A program made the position numbers and the translations under genes. The notes below the pieces were generated by a model. It saw only the letters and a list, made by a program, of their open reading frames with translations, ran no database searches and was not told the origin of the DNA. Source: Ostreococcus lucimarinus (Eukaryota). Taken from it: DNA of 64,000 nt. Location: the NCBI GenBank assembly GCA_000092065.1, contig CP000600.1; one strand, given 5' to 3'. Positions 3,722-58,018 of the stretch are shown in pieces (the stretch's first letter is position 1; each line of letters starts with the position of its first letter).

Positions 3722-4774
3722 ATGTCGCGCTCGCTCGCGACGCGCGAAGTGACGCGCGCCATCGCGCTCGCCCGCGCGTGCGCGCGCGACGCCCGCGCGC
3801 GCGTGAAAATTGCCGGCGGCGCGCGCGCTTCGGGACAAAAGTGCACTTTTTCTCGCCTCGGAAAACACCGGCTCGCGCCCGCGTCGACCGTCGCCGCGCG
3901 CGGCGGCGCGACGCGCGCGACGAACGATGATCTCGCGCGCCTGCACGCGCCGTCTCTTCACCGGTTCTACGTGGACGCGGACTTTGCGCGCGGCGCCGCG
4001 GTGACGCTCTCGCGCGAGGAGACGCGACACGCCACCAAGGCGCTTCGGTTGAAACCGGGCGATCGTTTGGAAGTGTGCGACGGTCGAGGGACGCTCGGCA
4101 TCGCGAGGCTGTGCGCCGTGGACGGCGTGGGGGCGACGGTGGAGGTGGAGGAGATGGTGGCGGACGCGCTCGGGAGCGGGACGGCTTGGGACGTCGCGAG
4201 CGCGTTCGGCGGATTAAAGGGCGGACGAGGGGACTGGTTGGTCGAAAAGTGCGCGGAACTCGGCGCGCGCACGCTCGTACCGTTGTTGACGACGCGATCG
4301 GGGGCGATCGGGGGTGGGGATAGGGACGGGGATAAGAAGCGGTCGGGGAATCGACGCGCGAGCGGCGGCGACGACGACGGCTCGACGGCGAGCGGGCGCG
4401 AGGGTCGGTGGGGGCGCGTCGCGCACGCGGCGAGTAAACAAAGCTTGCGCGTGTACGGCTTACAGGTTGCGCCGCCGATCGGTGTCGAGGCGCTTTGCGA
4501 AGAAATCGCGAAAGATTGTGGCGAGCGGTTGACGTTGCTCGCGGCGGCGGGCGCGCCGCCCATCGCCGACGTCGCGCGCGCTTCGGGACTAGACTTGCGC
4601 TCGGGACGGATCGTCATCGGGCCCGAGGGAGATTTTACGGACGAAGAGTTGAAGGCGATGATCGCGGCGGGCGCACGGCCGGTTGGTTTAGGGTCGTTGC
4701 GTTTACGCGTGGAGACGGCGGCAATTTCCGCGCTCGCCGCCGTGTCGGCGCTCGCAGAGGAAAAAGGTGCGTGA
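3722..4774 (+). CDS. RsmE-like 16S rRNA (uridine-N3)-methyltransferase (SPOUT family) with an N-terminal organellar-type extension
   Basis: Motifs: HRFYVD...LSREETRHATKALRLKPGDRLEVCDGRG (PUA-like N-domain), EKCAELGARTLVPL, IVIGPEGDFTDEELKAMIAAGARPVGLGSLRLRVETAAISALA (SPOUT knot region). Confidence 0.7.
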   Translation: MSRSLATREVTRAIALARACARDARARVKIAGGARASGQKCTFSRLGKHRLAPASTVAARGGATRATNDDLARLHAPSLHRFYVDADFARGAAVTLSREETRHATKALRLKPGDRLEVCDGRGTLGIARLCAVDGVGATVEVEEMVADALGSGTAWDVASAFGGLKGGRGDWLVEKCAELGARTLVPLLTTRSGAIGGGDRDGDKKRSGNRRASGGDDDGSTASGREGRWGRVAHAASKQSLRVYGLQVAPPIGVEALCEEIAKDCGERLTLLAAAGAPPIADVARASGLDLRSGRIVIGPEGDFTDEELKAMIAAGARPVGLGSLRLRVETAAISALAAVSALAEEKGA

Positions 4775-19061: not shown

Positions 19062-19308
19062 CGCCCTCGCGCGCTCCTAGCGCGTCGCGCGCGTCGTCGT
19101 GTGCCGAAAACGGTCGAGAACGTCGAGAGAGCCATGTGTCGGTTCTTGTCCTCTCTCGGCCAACACTAAAATCTACAGCGCAACTTTTGCTACGCGGCAC
19201 ATCGACGCGCGACGCGCGACGCGCGAACGCGAACGCGAACGCGACGCGACGCGAAATAACGTCGACGGTGACGTCGACGTGACCGCGCGCGACGCGCGCG
19301 ACGTCGAC

Positions 19309-19360
19309 GAACGAACGAACGAACGAACGAACGAACGAACGAACGAACGAACGAACGAAC
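19309..19360. repeat. (GAAC)13 tetranucleotide microsatellite in a bidirectional promoter region
   Basis: Perfect GAAC x13 seen directly, flanked by (GCGAAC)3; lies between the divergent NPC1-like (-) and SNARE-like (+) genes. Confidence 0.95.
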
Positions 19361-19385
19361 GATCGTCGAGCCAACACCCGGCGCG

Positions 19386-42632: not shown

Positions 42633-43733
42633 TTACGGTTCGCCTTCGGCGTTCTCGGATGGTTGCTCCGACGACGCCGAGTCCACGGATCCAATCATGC
42701 TGTTCAACGAGCTCACGTCGACCTCGTCCGAACCGAGGGCGGTGATTCGCAACTTGTTGTAGTCGTCGTCGGTGGCGCCAAACGTCTCCTTCAACTTGAG
42801 TTGCACCTCAGCCCCGTGCGCCTTGTCGATGAACTCGTCCAAGTCAGCGAGGTACATCAACTTGGCAAACTTCCCCGCACCGTCGATCTTGCGCTCCATG
42901 CCAGATTGCGTCAAACCCGCCAAGTTGGTCATGAGAGTGCCGTACTTTTTGAACATTCGCTCACCCGTCTCCAATAAGATTTCCTTCATCTCTTCGCTAT
43001 CCAACCCGCACGCACCCTTGAGCGCCAACACATCCGCGACGAAGTCGAGCGTGAACGCCTCTTCCGTGAGCTTGTACCTGAGATACTTGCGGAAGATCTC
43101 CGCCGAGGAGTATCCCGTCTTCAACGCGAGACCTCGCACGACGCCCTTGTTCACGCTCGAGCGCTCGTTGGGGAAAAAGTTCTTCAACCGCTCCACGACC
43201 TCCACGTTCTTATTCACCGTCCTCTTCCGTCGCATTCGCCCGCTCGTCGCCTTTCGAAACACCTTATAGCACGAGTACGCGAACGTGCTCGCCAAGAAGA
43301 AGAACCCCAACGCGCCGAGGTTTCGCAACCCCGGATTCTCGCTCGCCGCGCGCACGCCCTCGGTCACCCTCCCCAGCACCGTGAGCTCCTCCACCTCCTC
43401 TTCCGCGATCTCTTCCTTCAATTCATCGATCGTCAGCCGCTCTCGCGCGCCCGGCGCGTCCCCGTCCGCGTCCGCGTCCCCGTCCCCGTCCCCGCGCGTC
43501 TCGTCCCGCGTCCCCGTCTCGCGTCGTCCCTCGCCCGCGTCCTCCGCGCGCGCGCCTGCGTCCGCATCGAGTCCCACTCGCGCGTCGTCGCGCGTCTCGC
43601 GCGTCTTCGTCGCGCGCGCCTTCGCCATCGCGACGACGCGCCGTCGCGCCGATCGCGTCGACCCTCGCCGCGCGTCTCGCGCGCGCGGCGTCGCGCCGAC
43701 GCGTCGCGACGCCGTCGCGATCGGCCGAAGCAT
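42633..43733 (-). CDS. hypothetical protein with a transit-peptide-like leader, an acidic region, one TM and a conserved-looking helical C-domain
   Basis: Start set at MLRPIATASRRVGATPRARDARR (ATG 43731-43733); TM GALGFFFLASTFAYSCY; C-domain YSSAEIFRKYLRYKLTEEAFTLDFVADVLALKGACGLDSEEMKEILLETGERMFKKYG has protein-like composition; the upstream portion of ORF 42633..44162 is rejected. Confidence 0.5.
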   Translation of the reverse strand: MLRPIATASRRVGATPRARDARRGSTRSARRRVVAMAKARATKTRETRDDARVGLDADAGARAEDAGEGRRETGTRDETRGDGDGDADADGDAPGARERLTIDELKEEIAEEEVEELTVLGRVTEGVRAASENPGLRNLGALGFFFLASTFAYSCYKVFRKATSGRMRRKRTVNKNVEVVERLKNFFPNERSSVNKGVVRGLALKTGYSSAEIFRKYLRYKLTEEAFTLDFVADVLALKGACGLDSEEMKEILLETGERMFKKYGTLMTNLAGLTQSGMERKIDGAGKFAKLMYLADLDEFIDKAHGAEVQLKLKETFGATDDDYNKLRITALGSDEVDVSSLNSMIGSVDSASSEQPSENAEGEP

Positions 43734-43846
43734 CGCGACGTCCGCGCCGATCGCTGTTCGCGAGATCGGTCGTCGCGTCGCGCGCGTCGCCGTGTGCGAC
43801 GCGCGCGCGACGACCGATCGGGGATCGACGATTCGGAGAGCGACGT

Positions 43847-43873
43847 GCGGTCGGTCGCGTATGGGTAAACAGT
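43847..43873. repeat. copy A of the 27-nt conserved intergenic motif GCGGTCGGTCGCGTATGGGTAAACAGT
   Basis: Identical to 53645..53671 (seen directly); lies in the 283-bp divergent promoter region between the hypothetical gene (start 43733, -) and SF3A2 (start 44017, +). Confidence 0.9.
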
Positions 43874-44016
43874 GCGGGGTGTAATAACAGTGCGTCCCGA
43901 TTCGCGATTCGCGCGCGCGACGCCCGCCGCGACACCGCGCCTCGCGTCGCGTCGCGCGCGGCCGAGACCGAGACCGAACCGCGAGACCTCGTAAACAGGG
44001 CGACGGACCCGCCGTC

Positions 44017-44778
44017 ATGTCGTTCATGGACGCGCGCGAGCACGGGTCGAAGATCGGCGGCGGGGGCGTGGCGTCGGCGAGCCAGGGCGCGGTGGATCGG
44101 CGCGAGCGCCTGCGACGGTTGGCGCTGGAGACGATCGATCTGGCGAAAGATCCGTACTTCATGCGGAATCATCTCGGGTCGTACGAGTGCAAGCTGTGCC
44201 TGACGATGCACGCGAACGAGGGGAATTACCTGGCGCACACGCAGGGGAAGCGACACCAACAAAATTTGGCGAAACGCGCGGCGAGGGACGCGAAGGACGC
44301 GGACGCGAGCTTCGGGAAGTCGAAAACGGCGACGATACAGCCGAGGAAGACGATGAAGATCGGACGACCCGGGTACAGGGTGACGAAACAGTACGATAGA
44401 AGGACGCGACAGCGGAGCCTGTTGTTTCAGGTGGACTACCCCGAACGCGAGCTCGGAACCAAGCCGAGGTATCGGTTCATGTCGGCGTACGAACAGAAAG
44501 TCGAGGCGTGGGATAAGCGGTATCAGTACGTGCTGTTCGCGTGCGAACCGTACGAGACGATTGGGTTCAAAATTCCAAACGTGGACGTGGACAAGGCGGG
44601 ACGGGATAAATTTTTCACGCACTGGGACGAGGACGTCAAGACGTACACGTGTCAGTTGACGTTTCGTCGCGTCGACGGCGACGGCGCGCCCCGCGGCGGT
44701 GGAATGCCGCGCGGTGGCATACCGCCGCCGCCGATGGTGGGCGGATTACCGCCGCCGCCGCCGCCGCCGGTTCGCTGA
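44017..44778 (+). CDS. SF3A2: splicing factor 3A subunit 2 (SF3a66/SAP62, PRP11)
   Basis: GSKIGGGGVASASQGAVDRRERLRRLALETIDLAKDPYFMRNHLGSYECKLCLTMHANEGNYLAHTQGKRHQQNLAKRAA is the C2H2 matrin-type zinc-finger region of SF3A2; proline-rich C-terminal tail. Confidence 0.93.
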   Translation: MSFMDAREHGSKIGGGGVASASQGAVDRRERLRRLALETIDLAKDPYFMRNHLGSYECKLCLTMHANEGNYLAHTQGKRHQQNLAKRAARDAKDADASFGKSKTATIQPRKTMKIGRPGYRVTKQYDRRTRQRSLLFQVDYPERELGTKPRYRFMSAYEQKVEAWDKRYQYVLFACEPYETIGFKIPNVDVDKAGRDKFFTHWDEDVKTYTCQLTFRRVDGDGAPRGGGMPRGGIPPPPMVGGLPPPPPPPVR

Positions 44779-44871
44779 GACGCCCGCTCGAGGGCGATTT
44801 TAGAGTATAGTTTACGGATTGCAAGTAGAGAGTGTAGCGTCCGCGCGTCGCGCGCATCGAGGACAACGATC

Positions 44872-45963
44872 GTGTCGTCATCGCGAACCCACCGAAAACG
44901 CGCGCGCGTCGCCGACATCGCGTCGACCTCGAAACCGCGTCCGCTCGTCGAGGGGACCGAGCGCGGCGTCCCGTTCCACCCGCGGCGCGCGCTACCACCG
45001 CACACCGCCGCGCGTCGCGGGTCCTCGCGCACCGTCACCGTCGCGCATCTATCATCAGCAAATTCTGCGCGATCGAGCGCCATGCACGCGCGCGCGGCGA
45101 TCGTTTCGGCGTCGGCGTCGATCGCGAGGGGAACTGAATCGTCCCATTCCGAACCATTCGTCCCGAGCGCGCGCGTCGTCGACGAGAACGCGCACGCGGA
45201 ACTGAGATGCGCGGGAAAGACGTCTCGAGAAGAGCTTTCTCCATCGCAGCGCGCTCGGGCCTTAGCGGGGATAATGGACGCGGCGTCGGCGCTCGGGACG
45301 CGCGCGCCGCTGTCGCCGCTGGGCAACGGAACGACGCCGCTGCGCCGGGCGCGATCGCTCATGGCCGAGGCGGCGACGACTTCGGCGGCGAATGGACTGA
45401 AACAGATTAGGGCATCGCGCGCGAATCGCGCGTCGTCCGCGGGCGCGCGTGACGCGGAAGAGAACTTGGACGCGCTCGAGGACGAAGCGCCGCGACGCGC
45501 CGCGAGCGACGCTGCTAGCGTGGCGTCGGCGAGCGCCCTTGACGCGGCGAACGCGATCGCGAAATATGCCGATCGCGAGCGGCAGCTCGTGGCGTTCATG
45601 AAGGAGATGGCTTCGAGCGCTGACGCTCGATTGAACGACGCGCTCGACGCGTTGAGCGCGAGCGAGGCGCAGCGCGAGGAAGAGCTCGCGGCGATGGCGC
45701 TCGCCGCGGACGCCGAGCGCGAGGCGTTGGAGTTTTCCATACTTCTCGAAAATAAGGCGCGCGTGAAAGAGCGCGAGCGCGTGGTCGAGCTCGAGACTTT
45801 GCTCGCTCTGAAGCAGCGCGAGATTGACGCGCTCGCCGCCGAGCGCGGCGGCGCCCGGCCGAGCGCCGCCGCCGTTCGGTACGCCGCGAACGTGCGCGAC
45901 GAAGTCAAAGCCATCTTACGAGCAGAGTTTAAGCGCGAGCTCGCGGACGAGCTCCTGAAGTAG
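44872..45963 (+). CDS. hypothetical Ala-rich protein with a C-terminal coiled coil (strand assignment tentative)
   Basis: C-terminal 130 aa heptad-like (ERQLVAFMKEMASSADARLNDALDALSASEAQREEELAAM...LETLLALKQREIDALAAER); the N-terminal half is low complexity; the competing minus-strand ORF 44652..46205 is equally biased. Confidence 0.3.
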   Translation: MSSSRTHRKRARVADIASTSKPRPLVEGTERGVPFHPRRALPPHTAARRGSSRTVTVAHLSSANSARSSAMHARAAIVSASASIARGTESSHSEPFVPSARVVDENAHAELRCAGKTSREELSPSQRARALAGIMDAASALGTRAPLSPLGNGTTPLRRARSLMAEAATTSAANGLKQIRASRANRASSAGARDAEENLDALEDEAPRRAASDAASVASASALDAANAIAKYADRERQLVAFMKEMASSADARLNDALDALSASEAQREEELAAMALAADAEREALEFSILLENKARVKERERVVELETLLALKQREIDALAAERGGARPSAAAVRYAANVRDEVKAILRAEFKRELADELLK

Positions 45964-46234
45964 GCGTGTATTACATTAAGCGTTAGCGAGCGGCGCCAGG
46001 CGCCTCGAAGAAACAAAGCCCCAACGAACCTCGGCACTTCGAGCCGCCGTCTCGATCGTTTCGACCGTGCGACGCGCGCGAGCGTACGCGCGCACGTCAA
46101 GCGAACGTCGAGCGCGGTGTGCGAACGACGTACGCGTCGATTTGCGCGCGTCGACGGCTGCACGAGACACTGAAACGCGTCGGACGATTTGATTTGCATT
46201 TGCAAACTCTTTTTGATTGGACTCTGCGAACGCG

Positions 46235-46717
46235 ATGAGCACGCCCGCGAGAAAGCGCCTGATGCGTGACTTCAAACGCTTACAAACCGACCCGCCGGCT
46301 GGAATCAGCGGAACGCCGAGCGAATCGAACATCATGGCGTGGCACGCGGTGATCTTCGGGCCCGAGGGAACGCCGTGGGAAGGCGGAACGTTTAAATTAA
46401 CGATCGCGTTCAGCGAGGAGTACCCGAACAAGGCACCCGTGGTGAAGTTTGTGACTAAAATGTTCCACCCGAACGTGTACAACGACGGATCGATCTGTTT
46501 GGACATTTTACAAAATCAGTGGAGTCCGATTTACGACGTCGGGGCTATTTTGACGAGCATACAGTCGCTGTTGTGCGACCCGAATCCGAATTCCCCGGCG
46601 AATTCCGAGGCCGCGGCGCTGTATAACGAAAACCGACGCGCGTATAACAAGAGGGTGAGCGCGTGCGTGGAGGATTCTTGGTTGGAGATCGGCGCGAGCG
46701 GAGCGACGGCGTCTTGA
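46235..46717 (+). CDS. UBC2: ubiquitin-conjugating enzyme E2 (RAD6/UBC2 type)
   Basis: [26 protein letters not shown]...[21 protein letters not shown] (catalytic Cys in the HPN...C motif); near-identical pattern to RAD6. Start moved to ATG 46235. Confidence 0.95.
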
Positions 46718-46916
46718 CGAATCAAAACGAGGAAACGCACAATAGCATTTCGACGAGCGCAGCTCGTGACGCGAGTTCACGCGCGCGCTCGTCGATTCGA
46801 ACGATTTTTATCATCCAAAAGCGCGAACTTTGTCGCGCATTAGCAGCATTTGTACAATCCATTGAACGATTTTCATTCAAACGCGTCTTCGACAGCTCGT
46901 CGCGGCTTGCGTCAGA

Positions 46917-48629
46917 ATGCGACGCATCGTCGCGCGGCGCGCCCTCGTCGACTTTCGCGCGCGCCCGTCGCTCGCGCGAATCCGCGCGCGAGCGAGCGAG
47001 GCGTCATCGCGGCGAGTCACAGACGCACAGACGTCCAAAGTCGTCAAAACATCTTCGACTCGAAGCTTTGCGACTCACGCGATGGCGTCGGAGGCCGAGC
47101 TCGTGACGCGCGTGGACGCGAACGAGGCGCGAACGACGGACGAAGACGCGCGTGCGTCGCTATTGCGTTGGTACGACGCGAATAAGCGCTCGCTACCGTG
47201 GCGAAGACGAGGGAAACAACGCAAATGGATTAAGATTGAGGCGCTCGCGGAGGACGCGGCGACGCCGTCGCGAGACGTCGCCGCGGCGGCGACGCTGTGG
47301 CGCGAGCGCGCATTCGAGAGCGACGGTGAGGACGGAGAAGCGAGCGTGCTCGCACGGATGAGCGATGATCAGTACGCGTACGGTATACTGGTGTCGGAAA
47401 TTATGAGTCAACAGACGCAAATCGAACGTGTCGCCGAGTACTGGCGGCGATGGACCGCGCGATGGCCCACGGCGGAAGCGCTCGCGGAGGCTACGATCGA
47501 GGAAGTGAACGAGGAGTGGGCTGGGTTGGGATACTATCGCCGCGCGAAGTTTTTGTTGAACGGCGCGATTTATGTGCGGGATGCGCTGAAAGGGAAGTAC
47601 CCGCGAGACGTCGAGGGATTGTCGAAGATTCCGGGCGTCGGCCCGTACACGGCGAGCGCGGTGGCGAGCATCGCGTTCGGCGCGAAGACGGCGGCGGTGG
47701 ACGGGAACGTGTATCGCGTTATCACTCGGGCGAAGATGATCAAGGGTGATCCACTCAAAGGCGACGCCGCGAAAGAGATTCGACGCGTCGCGGATGCATT
47801 CGTGGACGCCGAGCGCCCTGGCGACTTCAACCAAGCGATGATGGAGCTCGGCGCGATGGTTTGCGCTCCGCAGAATCCCAAGTGCGATTCGTGCCCGATA
47901 TCGATGTGGTGCGGCGGGTTCGCGAAACAACGTGAAACGAGCGGGGTGTTTAAGGTAACCGCATTTCCAGAGACGGCGAAGAAGGCGGAAAAGCGTCAAG
48001 AGCAGCGCGCGTTCGTCGTCTTGAGGCGTACGGCGCCGGCGGACGCCGACGCCAAGCCTGAATACGAGTATTTACTCTCCAAACGCCCCGAAGGTGGTTT
48101 ATTAGGCGGGCTTTGGGAGTTCCCCAACGCCCTGATCGCGATAGAATCTGACGACGCCTTCGCGCTGCGGCCAAAGTCTGACGTTCGAGACGCCCAAGAC
48201 GCCCTGTGCGAAGAACTCGGCGCGTCCTCGCGCCGAAACGTCGACGCCGTCGCGGGCAAAGCCGTGCACGTCTTTTCGCACATTCGCCAAGTCATGCACT
48301 ACCAGCTCGTCGATTGCGTTCCACTCGATGCGACTGGAGCGAACGGCGACGACGTCGTCTCGCGAAACGTGCCCGAGCGCGAACTCAAATGGTTCCCCGC
48401 GCGCGCGTTCGAAGAATCCGGCGTCTTCTCCTCTGGCGTCGTCAAGGTGTACGCCAAGTGCGCCGTGACTTCGGTCGCGCGCGCCAAGCCCAACGCCTCG
48501 GGCGCGCAGAAACGTCTTCGCGATGCGGGTGCGTCGCGCGAGATCGACGCTTCGCAAACTTCCATCAAAGCCTTCTTCGGGTCCGCCGCGCCGGCTTCGC
48601 CAGCCCCTGGCACTCGCGGGGGGACGTAA
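46917..48629 (+). CDS. MUTYH: A/G-specific adenine DNA glycosylase (MutY homolog) with a C-terminal NUDIX-like domain and an N-terminal targeting-like extension
   Basis: LLRWYDANKRSLPWRR, YGILVSEIMSQQTQIERVAEYWRRW, EEVNEEWAGLGYYRRAKFL, IPGVGPYTASAVASIAFG, VDGNVYRVITR and a 4Cys cluster (CAPQNPKCDSCPISMWC) are the HhH-GPD and [4Fe-4S] blocks of MutY. Confidence 0.9.
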   Translation: MRRIVARRALVDFRARPSLARIRARASEASSRRVTDAQTSKVVKTSSTRSFATHAMASEAELVTRVDANEARTTDEDARASLLRWYDANKRSLPWRRRGKQRKWIKIEALAEDAATPSRDVAAAATLWRERAFESDGEDGEASVLARMSDDQYAYGILVSEIMSQQTQIERVAEYWRRWTARWPTAEALAEATIEEVNEEWAGLGYYRRAKFLLNGAIYVRDALKGKYPRDVEGLSKIPGVGPYTASAVASIAFGAKTAAVDGNVYRVITRAKMIKGDPLKGDAAKEIRRVADAFVDAERPGDFNQAMMELGAMVCAPQNPKCDSCPISMWCGGFAKQRETSGVFKVTAFPETAKKAEKRQEQRAFVVLRRTAPADADAKPEYEYLLSKRPEGGLLGGLWEFPNALIAIESDDAFALRPKSDVRDAQDALCEELGASSRRNVDAVAGKAVHVFSHIRQVMHYQLVDCVPLDATGANGDDVVSRNVPERELKWFPARAFEESGVFSSGVVKVYAKCAVTSVARAKPNASGAQKRLRDAGASREIDASQTSIKAFFGSAAPASPAPGTRGGT

Positions 48630-49112
48630 GGTGCCGGGACGAATTGAGTGGAATTCTTCACACACTGACGCGCACCGGCGCTTTCGACGCGCTTTCGACG
48701 CCGAAAACGCCGACGTCAGTGAATACAAAGCACACGCACCCGTTCAAATCGTCCGCGCGTCGCACGTCGACGACGCGCGACGGTAAGACGCGTTCCAAGC
48801 GCGCTCTTCGGGACATCTGTGTGCGAAGGCATTCGAGCGAAAATGAGCGCGCGGCGCACGCGCCGTGGACGCGCGAACGGGAAAGACGAAGAAGATGACG
48901 TCGATGAAGATGATACGAGGTGCGGCGCGACGAATGACGCGATGATGACGCGGCGTTGGGTGATACGAGGGCGATGGCGATTGAGCGGGACGAGCGCGCG
49001 AGCGGGACAACCGACGCGAGACGAAAGATGACTGACGGATGCGCGTGAACGACGTCCACGCCACGGTTTTAGGTCACCGACGACGAGCGATGAACGACAG
49101 CAGTCGTCTGGG

Positions 49113-50534
49113 TTGATGGGAAGCGCGATGAAGTTGTTTAAATCGTTGAGTAGGAAGGAGCGAGGGGCGAAGCGCGAGCGACTTGAGGAGTCGGCTGAGG
49201 ACAACGCAAAGCGTGTGAAGTCCTCGGAGGATGCAAGCGCGAGCGCGAGTCCGTCGGGGGAGGCGCACACACCTCCAGGATCCGTGTTTCGACCGCCCGC
49301 GAGCGATGCATCGTTCATCACGAGCTCGATCAGGAAGTCCACGGCTAGACGCACGGGCTCCGGCGGCGCGGCGGCGGAGCCAGTGGCGCCGACGAATTTA
49401 AGCACACGTTTCGGTGGTGACGGCGACGATGGTCCCACATCGTTGGGTGTGGACGTCCTAGGGTCACCGAAAGTGAAAATCACGCGCTCGGGATCGCGAA
49501 AGCTGTTAGACACGATTTTTTCGCCAATGTTTTCATTTTTTAGCAGCGGAGGGACGAGAAAGCAAGGACGTCGGCCGAAGACGAGAAGGTCCGCCAAGCG
49601 CGAAGTCGCGGGACAAAGCGAGCACGCGGATGCGGAAGAAGCGATTCTAGATATGAAAATGAGTAAGATACACAACGCACTCATTCATAGCGAGGACTTG
49701 GATGGCAAAGACGTCGAGTTGTTGGGCGGCGAGCGGATGTCAGCGAGGGAATACTTGGGGCGTTTTGGGATGACGAGCGAAGAGGCTGCGCACGCGCCGT
49801 ACGAGGATTATGACGAAGAGTATGATCCGTGGGCATTCATTTACAATTTGAGGTACTCGTCGCCTTCTGCGGCAGCGCGCGGCCCGAAAGGACCGGTGCT
49901 CCCGGCGCGAGACGAGCACGACACTCGGAACACACTCGTGCTCGACTTGGATGAAACGCTGGTGCATTCTAATTTGGAGAACACGGTTGAGAGATGCGAC
50001 TTTAGTTTTCCAGTCGTCTTCAACGGCGACATGCATCGGGTGAATGTCAGAAAGCGGCCGCACTTGTCGACGTTCATGGAATTGGTGTCAAAGCAGTACG
50101 AAATAGTCGTCTTTACGGCGTCGCAGCAAATATACGCCGACAAGTTGCTCGATATTCTCGACCCTTCGCAAAAGTGGATCAAGCACAGGATCTTCCGCGA
50201 TTCGTGCGTGCAAATCGATGGGAATTTCATGAAAGACTTACGCGTGCTCGGCCGGGATCTATCGAGAACGATTATCATCGACAACTCGCCGCAAGCGTTT
50301 GGATTACAAGTCGAAAACGGGATCCCGATCGAGTCGTGGTACGACGACGATGCGGATAATCATTTGCTTTCACTTCTTCCCATACTCAACGAACTCGCCG
50401 CCGATACGGACGTGCGCGTGACGCTGGACCGCATGTTCAATCTCCGCGAGAGAGTGCGACGCGGCGGTCTGCGTTCCGACGCGTGGAGGCAGGCGATGGG
50501 TATAGAAATCGGCGCGCCGCTTCCCCCGGGATGA
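49113..50534 (+). CDS. NIF/FCP1-homology (CTD small phosphatase-like) protein phosphatase
   Basis: DxDxT catalytic motif LVLDLDETLVHS, then VRKRPHLSTFMELVSKQYEIVVFTASQQIYADKLLDILD, IIIDNSPQAF. Confidence 0.88.
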   Translation: MMGSAMKLFKSLSRKERGAKRERLEESAEDNAKRVKSSEDASASASPSGEAHTPPGSVFRPPASDASFITSSIRKSTARRTGSGGAAAEPVAPTNLSTRFGGDGDDGPTSLGVDVLGSPKVKITRSGSRKLLDTIFSPMFSFFSSGGTRKQGRRPKTRRSAKREVAGQSEHADAEEAILDMKMSKIHNALIHSEDLDGKDVELLGGERMSAREYLGRFGMTSEEAAHAPYEDYDEEYDPWAFIYNLRYSSPSAAARGPKGPVLPARDEHDTRNTLVLDLDETLVHSNLENTVERCDFSFPVVFNGDMHRVNVRKRPHLSTFMELVSKQYEIVVFTASQQIYADKLLDILDPSQKWIKHRIFRDSCVQIDGNFMKDLRVLGRDLSRTIIIDNSPQAFGLQVENGIPIESWYDDDADNHLLSLLPILNELAADTDVRVTLDRMFNLRERVRRGGLRSDAWRQAMGIEIGAPLPPG

Positions 50535-50589
50535 TGAATGAGTGGGATGATAACCGTCGCGTAATATTAGAGATTTGTAGGATTAACGT

Positions 50590-51792
50590 CTAAAGCTTCG
50601 CAAGCAACAATTCACCCATCTTCACGCAGCCGACGAGCGTCTTGCCTTCCTGCATGATGTCGCCCGTGCGATAGCCATCATCCAAAACATCGTTCACCGC
50701 CTTTTCGAGCGCAGACGCGATGCCTTCTTCGCCGAATTGGTATCGCATCATCATCGCCGCGCTCAAAACTTGCGCCAACGGGTTGGCCTTGTCTTGACCG
50801 GCGATATCCGGGGCGCTCCCGTGCACCGGCTCGTACAAGCCCGGACCCTCCAAGCCGATGGCCGCGGACGGCAACATACCGATCGACCCCGTCAACATGG
50901 ACGCCGCGTCGGAAAGAATGTCACCGAAGATGTTACCGGTGACGATGGTGTCGAACTGCGTCGGGTTACGGATGAGTTGCATCGCGGCGTTGTCGACGTA
51001 CATGTGCGAGAGCTCGACGTCGCTAAACTGCTTGTGGGTCTCGATGACGCGCTCCTTCCAAAGTTGGCTCACCTCGAGCACGTTCGCCTTTTCGACGGAA
51101 CACAATCGACCCTTGCGCTTGCGAGCGATTTCAAACGCCACCTTGGCGATGCGATCGACCTCCGGTTCAGAGTACACCATCGTGTTGAACCCGATGCGTT
51201 CGCCCGCGTCGTTCACGCCGAACCCCTTCGGTTTGCCGAAATAAATCCCACCCGTGAGTTCGCGCACCACCATGATGTCCGTCCCCTCCACGACGTCTCT
51301 TCTCAGCGTCGACGCCTCGATGAGCTGCGGCAGCACGTTCGCCGGTCGCAAGTTCGCGAACACCCCCAGACCCGCCCGCAATCCGAGCAACCCTTGCTCC
51401 GGTCGCTCCGCGCTCGGCAGGTTATCCCACTTGTACCCCCCGATCGCGGCCAGCAGCACGGCGTCGCTCGCCTTGCACATCTCCAGCGTCTCCTCCGGCA
51501 GCGGCGTTCCGTGCGCGTCGATCGCGCTCCCGCCCACGAGTCCCTCCTCGAACGCGAACGCGACGTCCGCCCTCGCGCCCGCCGCCTCGAGCGCGCTCCG
51601 CGCCACGCGCATGATCTCCGGCCCGATCCCGTCTCCCGGCAGGATCGTCACGTTGTACCGCTTCGACGCGTGCATCGCGACGCATCGCGCGCGTCCGCGT
51701 CGCGTCGCGTCGCCCGCGCGTCCCGCGCGTCGTCCGTCGCGCGTCGTCGGCGACGCGCGCGAGGGTTTCGTCGCGACGCGCGTCGTCGCCAT
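50590..51792 (-). CDS. LEU2: 3-isopropylmalate dehydrogenase with a transit-peptide-like leader
   Basis: [19 protein letters not shown]..., NLRP..., ...[11 protein letters not shown]..., [27 protein letters not shown] are IMDH/ICDH-family motifs. Start set at [11 protein letters not shown] (ATG 51790-51792); the remaining 138 codons of ORF 50590..52206 are R-rich artifact. Confidence 0.88.
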
Positions 51793-52210
51793 CGTCGTCG
51801 TCGTCCGTCTCGCGTCCGTCGCGGGCGTCGGTCGCGTTCGGAGCGCGTTCACGCGCGCGTTCGCGGTCGTCGCGGAGACGCGTCGCGGTCTCGCGTCGCG
51901 CGCGTCGCGCGGGGCCGTCGATCCGCGCGCGCGCCCGGCGTCGCTGACTCCCGGGTGTTTAGGGTTGAGGACATCTCCGCGTCGTCGGCGCGCGCGACGA
52001 CGTCGAGGGGTTCGTTCGCGTTTCGGGCTCCACAGTACGATCGAGCATCGCGTATTCCCGCGAGGCGCGGCGGTATATTTACTCCGAACACGAACTCGCC
52101 GCGCACGACGTCGACGGGTGGTCGGTTGGACGGCGCGCGCGCGCGCGAAGCGACGACGGCGCGGCAGACGGCGGCGGACGGGACGCGCGCGACGTCGGGA
52201 TCGCATCGAT

Positions 52211-53407
52211 ATGAGCGAGCGCGCGCTTCACACGTACGGCGCGCTGCTCGAAAGCCGCGCGCGCGGGGCGCTGTCGGACGCCGAGCGCGGCGCGGGCGCG
52301 CGGGCGACGACGAACGTCGCGCGTGCGCGCGCGAGCGATGCGTCGAGCGAGGACGAGGGAGACGCGGGAGGGCGAAGTCGACGGGAAGCGCTGGAGGACG
52401 CGGCGTGGCTGGAGGCGCGCGAGAGGGAGAACAAGACGTGGCGGGAACGCGCGCGCGAGGCGAGCGCGAAGGCGCGCGCGTGGTTGTACGCGAATTTATG
52501 GATCGCGTTCGCGCTGTACTTGGCGTTCGCGGTGTCGTGCCTGCAAGCGGTGAGGGACGAGCCGGGGTTCGAGACGTTCGTGGACGCGGTGTATTTCATC
52601 GCCATCACGGTGACGACGGTGGGGTACGGCGATATTTCTCCGCAGACGGACGCGGGGAAGATTTTTATGCTGTTTTTCATCATCGTCGGCATCGCGCTCG
52701 CGACGGTGGTGATTTCGAAGATCACCGACCTGATCGTCGACGCCAAGGAGCGGTCGGAGGTGAAGGCGCAGGAGGAGTTGGATCGATCGATGGAGAATGA
52801 TTTACATGCGCTGAGCGGGTCGCTCGGCGCGACGATGAGCGCGGAGGACATAGCGCGGTTCAAGGAACGCGCGGCGTTGGAGCACCAGAGCGTGGCGCGT
52901 GTCCATCCCGTGCTTCGCGTGCTGCTCCATCCTCTCGGCGTCATCACCATCGTCATCCTCATCGGCGCCGCGACGTTTTGCTCGCTCGAGTCGGGCACGT
53001 CGTATCTCGACGGCGTGTGGTGGGCCGTCGTCACGTCCACGACGGTCGGATACGGCGACATCTTACCGACGAATGATTCCTCCAAAATTTTCGCCGCGTG
53101 CTACGCCTTCATCGTCGTCGGCGTCATGGGCTGGGCCGTATCGCAGATTTGCGCGTCGGCGCTCGACAGCAAGGCGCACCACGACGGCGAGTTGCGTTCC
53201 TTCAAACTCACCGCGTCCTGGCTCGCCGAGCAGAGCGGCGATAAGGGTTACGTCGACAAGTTCGATTTCATTCGCTCCATGATCATCGCTCGCGGCGTCA
53301 TGAGCGCCAAGGAATTCGATAAAATCGCCGCTCGATTCTCCCAACTCGACGTCAACGGCGACGGCGCGTTGGACGTCGGCGACTTGCTCAACGTCCCGCG
53401 CGCGTGA
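52211..53407 (+). CDS. two-pore-domain K+ channel (plant TPK/KCO-like) with a C-terminal EF-hand
   Basis: Two pore loops [12 protein letters not shown] and [12 protein letters not shown], each flanked by TM helices (4 TM total), and the EF-hand loop [13 protein letters not shown]. Start at ATG 52211; the upstream part of ORF 51254..53407 is antisense to LEU2 and rejected. Confidence 0.85.
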
Positions 53408-53448
53408 CGCGATCGGGTTCGAAAAGTCGCGCGCCCTTCGCGTCGGCG

Positions 53449-53453
53449 TGTAA
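53449..53453 (+). promoter_or_regulatory. TGTAA putative polyadenylation signal
   Basis: About 42 nt after the K+ channel stop 53405-53407. Confidence 0.4.
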
Positions 53454-53644
53454 CATGATTAATACCAAGCGACCGAGCGCCGCGCCGCCTCGGCGTCCAC
53501 GCTTCGCCCTCGACTGGTCCTCGCCGCGCTCCCGGGTTCGCCCGCCGGCGGGTTATATGGGCATATGTAGTCTATAATACGGTAACAGCCGCTCGACGCA
53601 TAAAGCGTATCCTCGTGACGTGGCGCGTAACCGAATCCGCGATC

Positions 53645-53671
53645 GCGGTCGGTCGCGTATGGGTAAACAGT
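53645..53671. repeat. copy B of the 27-nt conserved intergenic motif GCGGTCGGTCGCGTATGGGTAAACAGT
   Basis: Identical to 43847..43873; lies in the 815-bp spacer between the K+ channel and the PPR gene, about 60 nt downstream of an AT-rich TATAATAC-containing stretch (53545-53590). Confidence 0.9.
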
Positions 53672-54222
53672 ACGCGATTCTGGATATCGAGATGCGGGAT
53701 GGATACGACACCCGCGTGTATAAGACCCATCGCGCGTCGTCTCGGCGCGGCTTCACACGCGCGCGCGACTCGGGTGCGATCGAGTCGCGATTCGTGAGAC
53801 GCGTCGTCACACGCGCGAGGCCGTCACGCGCGTTTCGCGTCGAGGCGCGCGCGATCGCGCCCGAAATCGCGACGAAACGCGTCGCGGTCGCGTCGCGTCG
53901 TATCTTTGCGCGCGCGTCGAAAGCGGCGAGGCGACGACGACGCGCGACGACGACGGAATCGAAACGAACGAAACGACGCGACGCGTAAACGCATTGACGA
54001 CGTTCGCGACATCCGAGATCGCGAGGGCGGACACCGGTCGAGGAGGACGGCGACGCGGGGATAATCGCCGAGGGCGAGACGCGCGCGCGGGACGCGGCGA
54101 GACGACGACGCGAAGCGATGTGGGCGCGAGCGGTGGCGGCGGGACCGCGAACGGGACGGGATGGCGAGGCGAAGGGTGAGGGGGAGAAAAAAACGACGCG
54201 CGTCGAGCGAGGCGAGGACGGG

Positions 54223-56713: not shown

Positions 56714-58018
56714 TCACAAGAGGCGAGCGATTTCGTCAGTCTCGAACTCGGGCGCTCGTCGAAGGCGACGTATGACGATGCCGACGATGGTGACAGCGAC
56801 CACACAAAAAAGTGAAGCGCGCGACACGTCTAGGTCACGAGTGCTGACTACGATTGAAGCTTTCGAGCCCAGACGTGCGCTGACACTCGATGTCGGCGAC
56901 GCTTCGCCGTTGAGCTCTCTTTGGAGCTCGGCGAGTTGTTGCTGCAAGCCGGGCATCGAAGGGTGGTCGGGCTTGCGTCTGCCGATCTTTCTGGTGAGCC
57001 GGCGAATATCCCGCTTAAGTTTAGCGGCCTGATCCGGCGTCAAAGCCGGCGGCGAGGACACGGGCTCGGACGCCGGACTCGGACTCGATGTCGGCGACGC
57101 TTCGCCGTTGAGCTCTCTTTGGAGCTCGGCGAGTTGTTGCTGCAAGCCGGGCATCGAAGGGTGGTCCGGCTTGCGTCTGCCGATCTTTCTGGTGAGCCGG
57201 CGAATATCCCGCTTAAGTTTAGCGGCCTGATCCGGCGTCAAAGCCGGCGGCGAGGACACGGGCTCGGGCGCCGGACTCGGACTCTCCACCGGAGTCGACG
57301 ACGGATGTGCGTCTGGAGTCGCCGTTGGCGGCGGGTTCGGTGGCGGATTCGGCGGCGGATTCGGCGGCGGACTCGGCGGCGGCGGGTTCGGCGGCGGATT
57401 CGGCGGCGGACTCGGCGGCGGCGGACTCGGCGTCCCCCCGTTCACCGTGGACGTCACCGACGACGTCACCGTGGACGACACCGACCCCTCACCCAACGCC
57501 GCGCCGACGCCCTTCGTCCACGCCCTCGCGCCCAGCGCCCGCGTCGCCTCTCCCCATCGCTCGATCGCGCCTCCTTCACCCGTTCCGCACGTCCCGATCG
57601 CGAGCGCCAAGCACGCGCACGCCCCCGCCGCGCGCCACCGTCTCGCGCGCGTCGTCCCTCGCCTCCGCGCGTCGTCCCTCGCGTCGTCGCTCGCGCTTCC
57701 GCGCGACGTCCGCGTCGCCCCGTACGTCCCTCGCGTCGTCGTCGCGTCGTCCTCGCTCGCGCGCGCGCGTCCCGTCGCGCGCGTCATCCCTCGCGCGTCC
57801 CGCGCGTCCCGCGCGTCCCGCGAACGCGTCGTCCCGAAGTCGTCCCGAACGCGCGCGCGGTCGGCGTCGAGCGGCGGCGCGACGGCGGTCGGGGTCGGCG
57901 TCGCGCGCGCCCGGCGCGACGCGCGCGCGGCGCCGTGACGGGGTCTAAGCGTTAGACGCAACTCCAATTCGTAGCCCGCGCGCGTGTATTTCGTAACACC
58001 ATACACCGATCGGCACAT
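56714..58018 (-). CDS. proline-rich repeat protein with a C-terminal transmembrane anchor (HRGP-like; start uncertain)
   Basis: PPPSPPPNPPPNPPPPSPPPNPPPNPPPNPP block, two identical 66-aa repeats (PVSSPPALTPDQAAKLKRDIRRLTRKIGRRKPDHPSMPGLQQQLAELQRELNGEASPTSS) and a C-terminal TM (LFCVVAVTIVGIVI). The N-terminal 75 codons of the ORF are low complexity, and the real start is probably an internal Met. Confidence 0.6.
   Translation of the reverse strand: MCRSVYGVTKYTRAGYELELRLTLRPRHGAARASRRARATPTPTAVAPPLDADRARVRDDFGTTRSRDARDARDARGMTRATGRARASEDDATTTRGTYGATRTSRGSASDDARDDARRRGTTRARRWRAAGACACLALAIGTCGTGEGGAIERWGEATRALGARAWTKGVGAALGEGSVSSTVTSSVTSTVNGGTPSPPPPSPPPNPPPNPPPPSPPPNPPPNPPPNPPPTATPDAHPSSTPVESPSPAPEPVSSPPALTPDQAAKLKRDIRRLTRKIGRRKPDHPSMPGLQQQLAELQRELNGEASPTSSPSPASEPVSSPPALTPDQAAKLKRDIRRLTRKIGRRKPDHPSMPGLQQQLAELQRELNGEASPTSSVSARLGSKASIVVSTRDLDVSRASLFCVVAVTIVGIVIRRLRRAPEFETDEIARLL
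56887..57280. repeat. near-perfect 2 x 197-bp direct tandem duplication inside the proline-rich gene
   Basis: Units starting at about 56887 and about 57084 differ at only 2-3 positions (seen directly); this produces the duplicated 66-aa peptide. Confidence 0.9.

Follow-up and report, generated by a model that had tools for sequence, protein, structure and literature searches.

The window analyzed here, a 64,000-nucleotide stretch of the Ostreococcus lucimarinus CCE9901 genome (contig CP000600.1), contains two spacers that carry the same 27-nt sequence. The first spacer (283 bp, 43734..44016) was delimited from open reading frames and Pfam assignments, and separates an ARMH5-domain gene on the minus strand (ATG at 43733) from SF3A2 on the plus strand (ATG at 44017). 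The second (710 bp, 53408..54117) is non-coding, varies by a 1-nt indel between strains, and extends from the stop codon of a K+ channel gene (53407) to the start of a PPR gene (ATG at 54118). The shared 27-mer, GCGGTCGGTCGCGTATGGGTAAACAGT, is present as copy A at 43847-43873 in the first spacer and as copy B at 53645-53671 in the second, both exact matches on the plus strand. These are the only two copies in the whole window, where no additional matches with up to 3 mismatches were found. A reading of the sequence alone, made beforehand, had reported the two identical 27-mers at these positions, and exact matching bears it out. Identity ends abruptly at both edges, with t (A) or c (B) on the 5' side and G (A) or A (B) on the 3' side, followed by the common CG that the sequence-only reading had also described.

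Copy A lies near the centre of its spacer, which the sequence-only reading had described as a bidirectional promoter between SF3A2 and a hypothetical gene, now assigned as the ARMH5-domain gene. The 27-mer begins 113 nt from the ARMH5 ATG, and its last 15 nt, GTATGGGTAAACAGT (43859-43873, plus strand), end 143 nt before the SF3A2 ATG. Copy A is invariant among 7 O. lucimarinus-type haplotypes retrieved through the SF3A2 protein, and hence independently of the motif. A mini-intron or 5'-UTR intron was considered and rejected; the GT..AG spans are too short, and only CCE9901 has the second GTAAACAG, at 43991.

The repeat is real, and none of 100 dinucleotide shuffles of the window produced any match of this kind, in agreement with the earlier view that it exceeds chance. 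It is the sole dispersed exact repeat of at least 24 nt that is not simple sequence, once a 198-bp tandem duplication, trinucleotide runs and CG-rich runs are set aside. A chance match, an assembly artefact or contaminating synthetic sequence could appeal only to the generally CG-rich left half of the 27-mer, which by itself is ordinary (7 matches versus 7.2 expected). Against these origins stand the shuffles and the finding that independent assemblies (Illumina metagenome and Logan) of many samples show the sequence in these contexts again, and for practical purposes they are refuted. The sub-motifs TAAACAGT, GGGTAAAC and TATGGG are not generally enriched in the window; only copies A and B stand out, and the remaining TATGGG sites are Tyr-Gly codons.

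Copy B looks like a young, short duplicate of copy A

Copy B begins 238 nt past the K+ channel stop, close to the 240 bp first estimated, and ends 446 nt before the PPR ATG, for which the estimate of about 550 bp was too large. It is present in all O. lucimarinus-type contigs retrieved through the PPR protein. The orthologous spacers of two other clades have no counterpart, the best matches there showing 5-6 mismatches to the 15-nt segment that occupies 53657-53671 (plus strand) in copy B. Together with its distance from the PPR ATG, its 27-nt identity to copy A and a bracketing direct repeat, this absence marks copy B as atypical and young. The direct repeat, read from the sequence, consists of CGCGAT on the plus strand 1 nt before (53638..53643) and 1 nt after (53673..53678) the copy, and encloses a 29-nt unit made of C, the 27-mer and A. 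It is possibly a target-site or fill-in duplication, and the evidence for this is weak because the hexamer is common in this genome (P~0.02 by a rough estimate).

The arrangement resembles the short templated ('filler') insertions found at repaired double-strand breaks. Copy B would repeat, exactly and on the same strand, 27-29 nt of sequence from 9.8 kb along the chromosome; it is flanked by a 6-bp direct repeat and missing in other clades. It differs from such insertions in that the event itself is deduced rather than observed, since no strain was found with an empty-site allele.

A TATA-like stretch, TCTATAATAC (53571..53580, plus strand), was read 65-74 nt upstream of copy B, where an AT-rich stretch had been placed about 60 nt upstream; it is polymorphic among strains (TATAAT/TATGAT). 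A 109-codon open reading frame begins at the ATG within copy B and encodes 25% Arg and 17% Ala. It yielded tblastn matches in O. lucimarinus-type DNA only, belongs to no Pfam family and is not seen in the corresponding spacers of other clades. A small protein gene, as suggested by 'hypothetical protein' entries in metagenomes, was therefore rejected on the basis of the Arg-rich composition and the lack of conservation outside O. lucimarinus-type DNA. As far as tested, both 27-mers thus lie in non-coding spacers, as originally described.

A 15-nt core is conserved at orthologous loci of other Ostreococcus clades

A metagenome scan revealed a third context in O. lucimarinus-type genomes. This copy C has 21 nt in common with the 27-mer and lies where RPL35A and a DBP2-like helicase gene diverge, in a spacer of 237 bp. 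An exact 20-mer scan of the JGI metagenomes recovered only contexts A, B and C from O. lucimarinus-type contigs, and when 158 kb of distinct Ostreococcus DNA was scanned with a matrix, only the core sites already known came up. By both scans the core is rare and specific in Ostreococcus.

The informative part of the 27-mer is the 15-nt core GTATGGGYAAACAGT. In O. mediterraneus the ARMH5/SF3A2 spacer contains ATATGGGTAAACAGT, with 1 mismatch in 15 and in inverted orientation relative to copy A. In a second clade the RPL35A/helicase spacer contains GTATGGGTACACAGT, again with 1 mismatch in 15, and a weaker copy there points in the opposite direction. A third clade has GTGTGGGCGAACAGTCTGAC in that spacer (16/20 match; 3 core mismatches in 15), placed and oriented as in O. 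lucimarinus. In each case none of 3000 Markov-simulated spacers reached the observed match. The footprint thus extends to three other clades at two loci, and these two loci alone carry the conservation argument; at the ARMH5/SF3A2 locus no clear core copy was found in O. tauri or in a GC-55% clade. The sequence-only reading had staked a functional element on further copies or conservation, and the third context and the orthologous cores provide both.

Apart from the core, the spacers cannot be aligned between clades. The left part of the 27-mer (GGTCGCG) is not kept in other clades, nothing beyond about 15-20 nt is conserved, and the sequences next to the core are unlike between A, B and C and between species. 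Variation within the population was uninformative as to constraint, the strains being ~99% identical across the A and B spacers. Position is restricted: copies A and C and their orthologues occupy roughly the middle of divergent spacers of 228-364 bp, with a flanking ATG 82-149 nt away; copy B, at 446 nt, does not fit this pattern.

Search for RNA-level signals at the motif copies

The motif includes an ATG, and could act in the 5' leader of an RNA, either as an upstream AUG (AUG GGU AAA CAG, MGKQ...) or as a leader binding site that tunes translation downstream. Several features favour this: in the window the ATG shares its frame with the starts of SF3A2 and PPR, elsewhere it extends the helicase open reading frame in frame (609 versus 570 aa) and likewise that of O. 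mediterraneus ARMH5, and every motif copy is on the sense strand of some neighbouring gene. However, orthologous helicases begin at MGYVPPHLR, 39 codons downstream, and the 1-nt indel puts copy B out of the PPR frame in most strains. The in-frame MGKQ start codon is not conserved and was rejected. In one clade the ATG is a GTG, and in another it would open an out-of-frame reading frame that overlaps the RPL35A start, which argues against a translated leader. No structure was detected, and the orientation of the core differs between species at one and the same locus. A leader RNA element would not tolerate such a flip, and a site acting at the DNA level is therefore favoured; we regard a leader function as improbable.

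The motif might instead belong to an unannotated small RNA gene (snRNA, snoRNA or Pol III type) in the spacers, or serve as its promoter element, as the sequence-only reading had also suggested. snRNA-type promoters typically have long, well-conserved proximal elements. The proximal or upstream sequence elements (PSE/USE) of snRNA genes are comparable in being ~20 bp long, highly conserved between copies and placed upstream of the transcription start, sometimes with a TATA box downstream. The TATA-like box near copy B, and the unusual length of its 710-bp spacer for this genome, would agree with this. The suggestion found no support in the searches. Rfam gave no match at the gathering threshold in the window or at 7 related loci, and permissive matches were unrelated, far below threshold and never over the core. 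ARAGORN detected no tRNA or tRNA-like 5' end. Folding energies were no better than those of shuffled sequences on either strand (z-scores of -0.01 to +0.83 for A, B and C), indicating no stable structure, and conservation stops at about 15-20 nt with nothing adjoining the core shared. In contrast to the snRNA elements, no motif copy is followed downstream by an snRNA or another known RNA gene, and the motif does not match what we take to be the plant USE consensus, RTCCCACATCG. A small RNA gene is accordingly very unlikely. Two local features are each confined to a single copy: the O. mediterraneus copy alone lies in a local inverted repeat (z of -2.1), and copy B alone can pair with its own flank in a 6-bp stem.

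The core also occurs in introner-like introns of another picoeukaryote

The core is not confined to Ostreococcus. Contigs of a GC-58% picoeukaryote (L046, L050 and L051) contain 5 core copies within 6-8.5 kb, versus ~0.05 expected. Three of them are antisense in a pair of short repeated introns whose donor is GTRCGT and whose branch point is GACTGAC; a degenerate form is present in two further introns of this family. The other two lie in RIC1 coding segments, on the sense strand, and a homologue lacks these segments; one of the two copies aligns to an antisense intron copy over ~65 nt. Exact 20-mer matches in other algae were picked by the search pattern, and identity longer than the core is thus not independent evidence.

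These observations bear on the suggestion that the 27-mer is the core of a dispersed repeat family such as introners. In Micromonas, introner elements and single-motif partial copies have been documented (Worden 2009; Verhelst 2013, PMC3879977; Simmons 2015, PMC4540971; van Baren 2016, PMC4815162). In Micromonas pusilla the partial copies occur on the opposite strand in exons and also in intergenic and UTR DNA (PMC4815162; PMC3879977). The motif is similar in that a short conserved module recurs at many places in a Mamiellophyceae genome, with one-motif copies outside introns. It differs in that the window copies are not intronic, have no splice signals and number about three contexts per genome, whereas introners reach tens to thousands of near-identical copies. 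Similarity over most of the element, as expected of a family consensus, is likewise replaced by the 15-nt core. Introner insertions are typically lineage-specific, and two of the three motif contexts are conserved at orthologous positions. Measured against the partial copies of van Baren 2016, the window motif agrees in being one module alone and in running antisense to the orientation it has in the introns. That definition also calls for complete elements in the host genome; none came to light in the Ostreococcus DNA covered here.

The main rival to a promoter element is that the copies are functionless single-module remnants or offshoots of introner-type mobile introns, inserted into nucleosome-free promoter DNA, with B the youngest. 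The clustered cores in the GC-58% contigs, the partial elements of M. pusilla and the lineage-specific copy B with its 6-bp direct repeat all point this way. However, the flanks of A, B and C share only the 15-nt core with the introner-like introns of L046 and L051 and show no significant similarity to them against shuffles (lowest P of 0.03 among 18 tests). No donor (GYGCGT), GACTGAC branch point or CAG acceptor brackets A, B or C, the longest GT..AG span with the core being ~20-31 nt. A and C also have no inverted terminal repeats or consistent target duplications. O. lucimarinus-type genomes yielded only three contexts, and introner elements have not been reported in Ostreococcus in the literature. 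A neutral relic, moreover, would not retain 12-14 of 15 bases at orthologous positions amid scrambled spacers. We consider this origin rather doubtful, though it is a serious competitor. The introner suggestion is thus partly right: the window copies are not introners themselves, but the core occurs antisense in multi-copy introner-like introns and in exonic partial copies of another picoeukaryote.

A reading that combines both, which we consider unlikely, is that the core is the recognition site of a putative Mamiellophyceae-wide DNA-binding factor, organising a small number of host promoters and also carried by introners. Such a factor could, for example, be a protein that mobilises or positions introners. 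If so, Ostreococcus promoters and the mobile introns of a sister lineage would share one functional module, through exaptation of an ancient introner fragment or capture of a host site by the introners.

A candidate promoter element

Among the candidates put forward from the sequence, a shared cis-regulatory element is the best supported, the core being kept in orthologous divergent promoters of other Ostreococcus clades where the rest is unalignable. We give a probability of roughly 0.4 to the 27-mer holding a conserved promoter element with predicted protein binding. The core GTATGGGYAAACAGT would be a ~15-bp DNA element mid-way in very short divergent promoters (ARMH5/SF3A2 and RPL35A/DBP2-like helicase), 80-150 bp upstream of the start codons and presumably maintained by selection. 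The likeliest mechanism would be sequence-specific binding by a transcription factor or a general promoter-organising factor, predicted to recognise double-stranded DNA in either orientation. Copy A would be one of the old sites. Copy B, confined to the O. lucimarinus lineage, would be a young duplicate of 27 nt of the A version, most likely by short templated insertion, and may or may not function.

The perfect identity of 21-27 nt among A, B and C exceeds the usual length of a binding site and speaks against the promoter element. Because of this identity, and because the GGTCGCG part is unconserved elsewhere, the explanation also needs some copying or homogenisation among the dispersed sites. 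Also counting against it are the core copies that other algae carry within introns and inserted coding segments, places in which a promoter would be meaningless.

Known systems offer parallels for the candidate promoter element. Factor-binding sites lie in the nucleosome-free centre of divergent promoters, as with Rap1, Reb1 and Abf1 in yeast and the telo-box and site II of plant ribosomal-protein promoters. The core is similarly short, information-rich, orientation-tolerant and ~100 bp upstream of divergent start codons; its flanking genes include a ribosomal protein gene and an RNA helicase gene, and it outlasts promoter turnover. A ribosomal or ribosome-biogenesis regulon would need far more sites than the core has. 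The reverse strand contains ACCCATAC, similar to what we take to be the core of the yeast Rap1 site, an 8-nt resemblance that is not evidence.

Ostreococcus is the smallest free-living eukaryote, and its divergent genes share spacers of ~250 bp. To our knowledge, almost nothing is known of its promoter grammar. A rare, long element that outlasts full spacer turnover offers a handle for finding a DNA-binding factor and for testing compact bidirectional promoters, and O. tauri is transformable, which makes promoter tests practical. A core common to the introner-like introns of another picoalga bears on the origin of introners and on single-motif fragments outside introns. If the link is real it supplies a concrete sequence for testing that origin; if it is a coincidence, the finding amounts to one new candidate cis-element and a small local duplication.

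Other mobile sources were examined for the motif. A viral origin was rejected; IMG/VR does not contain the 27-mer, the matches of the 16-mer and of an 18-mer pattern are confined to phage coding sequences of low GC whose flanks are unrelated, and the introner mid-motif had no match in the viral search. A MITE or other DNA transposon was also rejected, with no inverted partner near A, B or C and the flanking direct repeat (CGCGAT) seen at B and at neither A nor C. Inverted core pairs do occur in O. mediterraneus and in L076, where they are oppositely arranged.

Two copies of a 27-nt sequence and their setting

The sequence-only reading had reported a 27-nt sequence present twice in the window, and this was borne out. 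Exact copies lie on the same (+) strand at 43847-43873 (copy A) and 53645-53671 (copy B), spaced 9798 nt apart, and no other site in the window matched at up to 3 mismatches. Dinucleotide shuffles of the window gave 0 matches to the 27-mer (n=100). When all exact repeats of at least 18 nt in the window were compared, the 27-mer was the sole complex dispersed repeat of at least 24 nt. The identity between A and B breaks off sharply on either side. The left 14 nt are unremarkable for a CG-rich genome (7 matches, 7.2 expected); the right 14-15 nt were found at copies A and B only in the window, even with 2-3 mismatches allowed.

Copy A lies between an ARMH5-domain gene (42633-43733, -) and the SF3A2 gene (44017-44778, +), both called from ORF and Pfam evidence, and in the gene order around it an Arp2 gene (-) precedes the ARMH5-domain gene. 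The proteins encoded beside the two copies are identical to O. lucimarinus CCE9901 entries, SF3A2 to XP_001422618 and Arp2 to XP_001422774 (549-kb chromosome). Copy B lies between the ORFs of a two-pore K+ channel gene (end at 53407) and a PPR gene (start at 54118). The earlier account of these surroundings was correct overall, but the PPR start is 446 nt downstream of copy B rather than about 550 nt.

The 9-mer AACAGTGCG occurs at 43868-43876 and 43886-43894, 18 nt apart, the first overlapping the end of copy A (GGGTAAACAGTGCG / GTAATAACAGTGCG). Both are unchanged among O. lucimarinus-type strains, and in O. mediterraneus a second AACAGT likewise follows the core. CCE9901 alone has a second GTAAACAG, at 43991-43998 and directly before the SF3A2 ATG; at this place six further haplotypes of the O. 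lucimarinus type have GTCCG-AG.

Further copies in metagenomes

JGI metagenome contigs were scanned once with the 20-mer GTCGCGTATGGGTAAACAGT, which gave 16 loci: 4 in the ARMH5/SF3A2 spacer (context A), 3 in the K+ channel/PPR spacer (B), 3 in an RPL35A/helicase spacer (C), 3 and 1 on contigs of other algae (D and E), and 2 on low-GC bacterial contigs, which were rejected as chance matches. The context C contigs (L047, L054, L055; GC 0.62-0.67) have 21 nt in common (GGTCGCGTATGGGTAAACAGT), and their helicase protein was also found on 680-690-kb contigs. Here the motif occupies a spacer of 237 bp, bounded on one side by the first RPL35A exon (-) and on the other by a DBP2/RH20-like DEAD-box helicase gene (+); the distances from the core to the respective flanking start codons are 117 nt and 104 nt. 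The true helicase start is MGYVPPHLR, as in every orthologue, so the 39-codon 'MGKQ...' extension of the metagenome calls is leader or promoter sequence. Contexts A, B and C were found on similar numbers of contigs, which suggests about three exact 20-mer copies per O. lucimarinus-type genome.

The core in other Ostreococcus clades

O. lucimarinus-type strains are ~99% identical over both spacers of the window and are therefore uninformative on constraint. We obtained the spacers of other clades via orthologous proteins, independently of the motif. At locus A, the orthologous 228-bp ARMH5/SF3A2 spacer of O. mediterraneus holds ATATGGGTAAACAGT, a version of the ~15-nt core GTATGGGYAAACAGT, in reversed orientation; a clear core copy was absent from this spacer in O. 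tauri and in a GC-55% clade. At locus C, one further clade (L076) has GTATGGGTACACAGT directed at RPL35A and a weaker GTATGTACAAACAGT directed at the helicase gene, separated by TATA-like AT-rich DNA, and another (L077) has GTGTGGGCGAACAGTCTGAC, 16/20 identical to the O. lucimarinus copy and in the same position and orientation. In first-order Markov simulations (3000 per spacer), matches as good as those seen in three clades at two loci (1, 1 and 3 mismatches in 15) were reached in 0/3000 for each spacer; the best O. tauri site, with 5 mismatches, was matched in 68/3000. The conserved cores lie 82-149 nt from start codons, in either orientation. Beyond the core, alignment of the spacers between clades fails. 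When 158 kb of distinct Ostreococcus DNA was scanned with a position matrix derived from the Ostreococcus sites, no additional site was convincing. The core has thus persisted at two divergent promoters from a time before the split of these clades.

This bears on the main rival reading, a functionless mobile module, which we rate as somewhat less probable than a promoter element. If the core were a decaying mobile fragment, its persistence at the same two promoters, in clades with otherwise scrambled spacers, would be unexplained, and several separate insertions into these particular 250-bp spacers would be improbable for so rare a family. Of the readings weighed, the one that fits most facts is a protein-bound promoter element kept by selection at loci A and C, copy B being a young duplicate; we give this tentative reading a probability of about 0.4.

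In O. mediterraneus (L070 3200-3300), unlike in the other species, the core belongs to an imperfect inverted repeat of local extent (TATGGGGTGTATAC ... GTATACTGTTTACCCATA), and the folding of this repeat is stronger than in shuffled sequence (z -2.1). In O. tauri (L004/L006 ~4320-4345), GGGGGTATGTATGAGTCACGAC stands in place of the O. lucimarinus motif; it holds a TGAGTCA heptamer (AP-1/GCN4-type) along with the 5-mismatch resemblance to the core.

Copy B

The orthologous K+ channel/PPR spacers of two other clades contained no core-like sequence. Copy B is restricted to the O. lucimarinus lineage and, compared with the conserved copies, is much more distant from the start codon that follows it; it is identical to A over 27 nt, against only 21 for C. 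A direct hexamer, CGCGAT, stands on both sides of it (53638-53643 and 53673-53678), and deleting the intervening 35 nt would yield AATCCGCGATTCTGG. No empty-site allele was seen among strains. Copy B is probably a young, short duplicate of A inserted in cis, perhaps as templated filler during break repair or by a very small transposition.

Starting from the ATG in B, a 109-codon ORF was considered as a protein gene and rejected: it is Arg/Ala-rich, without a Pfam match and without a counterpart in other clades. Farther along, in the spacer upstream of PPR at ~54012, the window has a 1-nt deletion (CATC-CGAG) relative to CATCGCGAG in every metagenome haplotype. The deletion determines which upstream ORF is joined to PPR by gene callers (808-aa vs 948-aa calls).

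The core on contigs of other algae, including introner-like introns

The context D contigs (L046, L050, L051; GC 0.58) carry five core copies at up to 2 mismatches in 6-8.5 kb, against ~0.05 expected. Three of the five are antisense inside two short repeated introns of 75 and 132 nt, and two more introns of the family hold a degenerate core (L046 701-776; L051 4688-4819, ~590-664 and ~1302-1382; 75-132 nt). GTRCGT donors, a common CCAAATCCCGCC block and a GACTGACAC branch point characterize these introns. Such features are hallmarks described for Micromonas introner elements (PMC4540971; PMC3879977); the repeated introns are probably introner elements. They also have a U-rich tail and come from an abundant GC-58% picoeukaryote; one holds the core module twice, 42 nt apart. 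The intron features, with a presumed polar/TARA provenance, point tentatively to a Micromonas-like alga as the source.

The other two context D copies occur in sense orientation within a RIC1-like gene, where they fall in coding segments that a 36%-identical homologue lacks; one of them aligns over ~65 nt to an antisense intron copy. These insertions appear to be exonised antisense introner fragments. This is the pattern that van Baren et al. described for M. pusilla, where partial introners of a single motif lie in intergenic DNA or, within exons, on the opposite strand (PMC4815162). Both insertions (L046 ~430-500 and ~1440-1560; ...GDGSCMGDGSRMGKQSDVRGQY... / ...IGTSNGSGIASKTRSVWANSQSESHSST...) are in frame and contain the core module; the second is the one that aligns to an intron copy, and the first follows three tandem 18-nt units (GGGATGGGTCGYGTATGG). 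On the context E contig (L044; GC 0.58), an 838-codon ORF that lacks Pfam domains carries two related copies, GTCGATATGACTAAACAGTCTGGAC and GTCGCGTATGGGTAAACAGTCTGGAG, close to its end. They lie on the - strand at 216-223 and 435 (oriented 12567 and 12786), 219 nt apart and in one frame. The 13 kb of this contig showed no introner-like repeats.

The likeness of A, B and C to the context D introns is confined to the core, their flanks matching the introns no better than shuffles. That D and E match the Ostreococcus copies over 20-23 nt is a product of the search pattern itself. Where the core is present many times in a genome, one such match can arise by chance. A purely regulatory site explains neither the 21-27 nt of identity that A, B and C share in a single lineage nor the intron and exon copies elsewhere. 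The putative promoter element may have a common origin with an introner module or may only look like one.

RNA-level, viral and chance readings

A small-RNA gene or promoter, as the sequence-only reading had proposed, found no backing. The window and seven related loci gave no Rfam match at gathering thresholds and no meaningful one at permissive thresholds; no tRNA was found, and neither strand gave a folding signal. The internal ATG of the motif is not what is conserved, being GTG in L077. In L076 it would begin an ORF overlapping the RPL35A start out of frame, which fits poorly with a transcribed leader of this ribosomal protein gene. A hidden small-RNA gene, an RNA-level leader element and chance share among them the probability left by the promoter element and the mobile module. 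A viral origin was rejected, the 27-mer having no match in IMG/VR.

The literature searched contained no description of the motif, or of any introner-related sequence, in Ostreococcus. As a candidate cis-element the motif is a new instance of a familiar kind; a module common to it and mobile introns, if it holds up, would surprise specialists.

Other repeats in the window

A 198-bp unit is present as two tandem copies, 99% identical, at 56885-57284, within a 434-codon ORF (56714-58018, -) with no Pfam match. It is followed at 57327-57432 by 12-nt and 39-nt GGCGGCGGATTC-type repeats. A microsatellite, (ACGAACGA)n, of ~8 units occupies 19299-19366.
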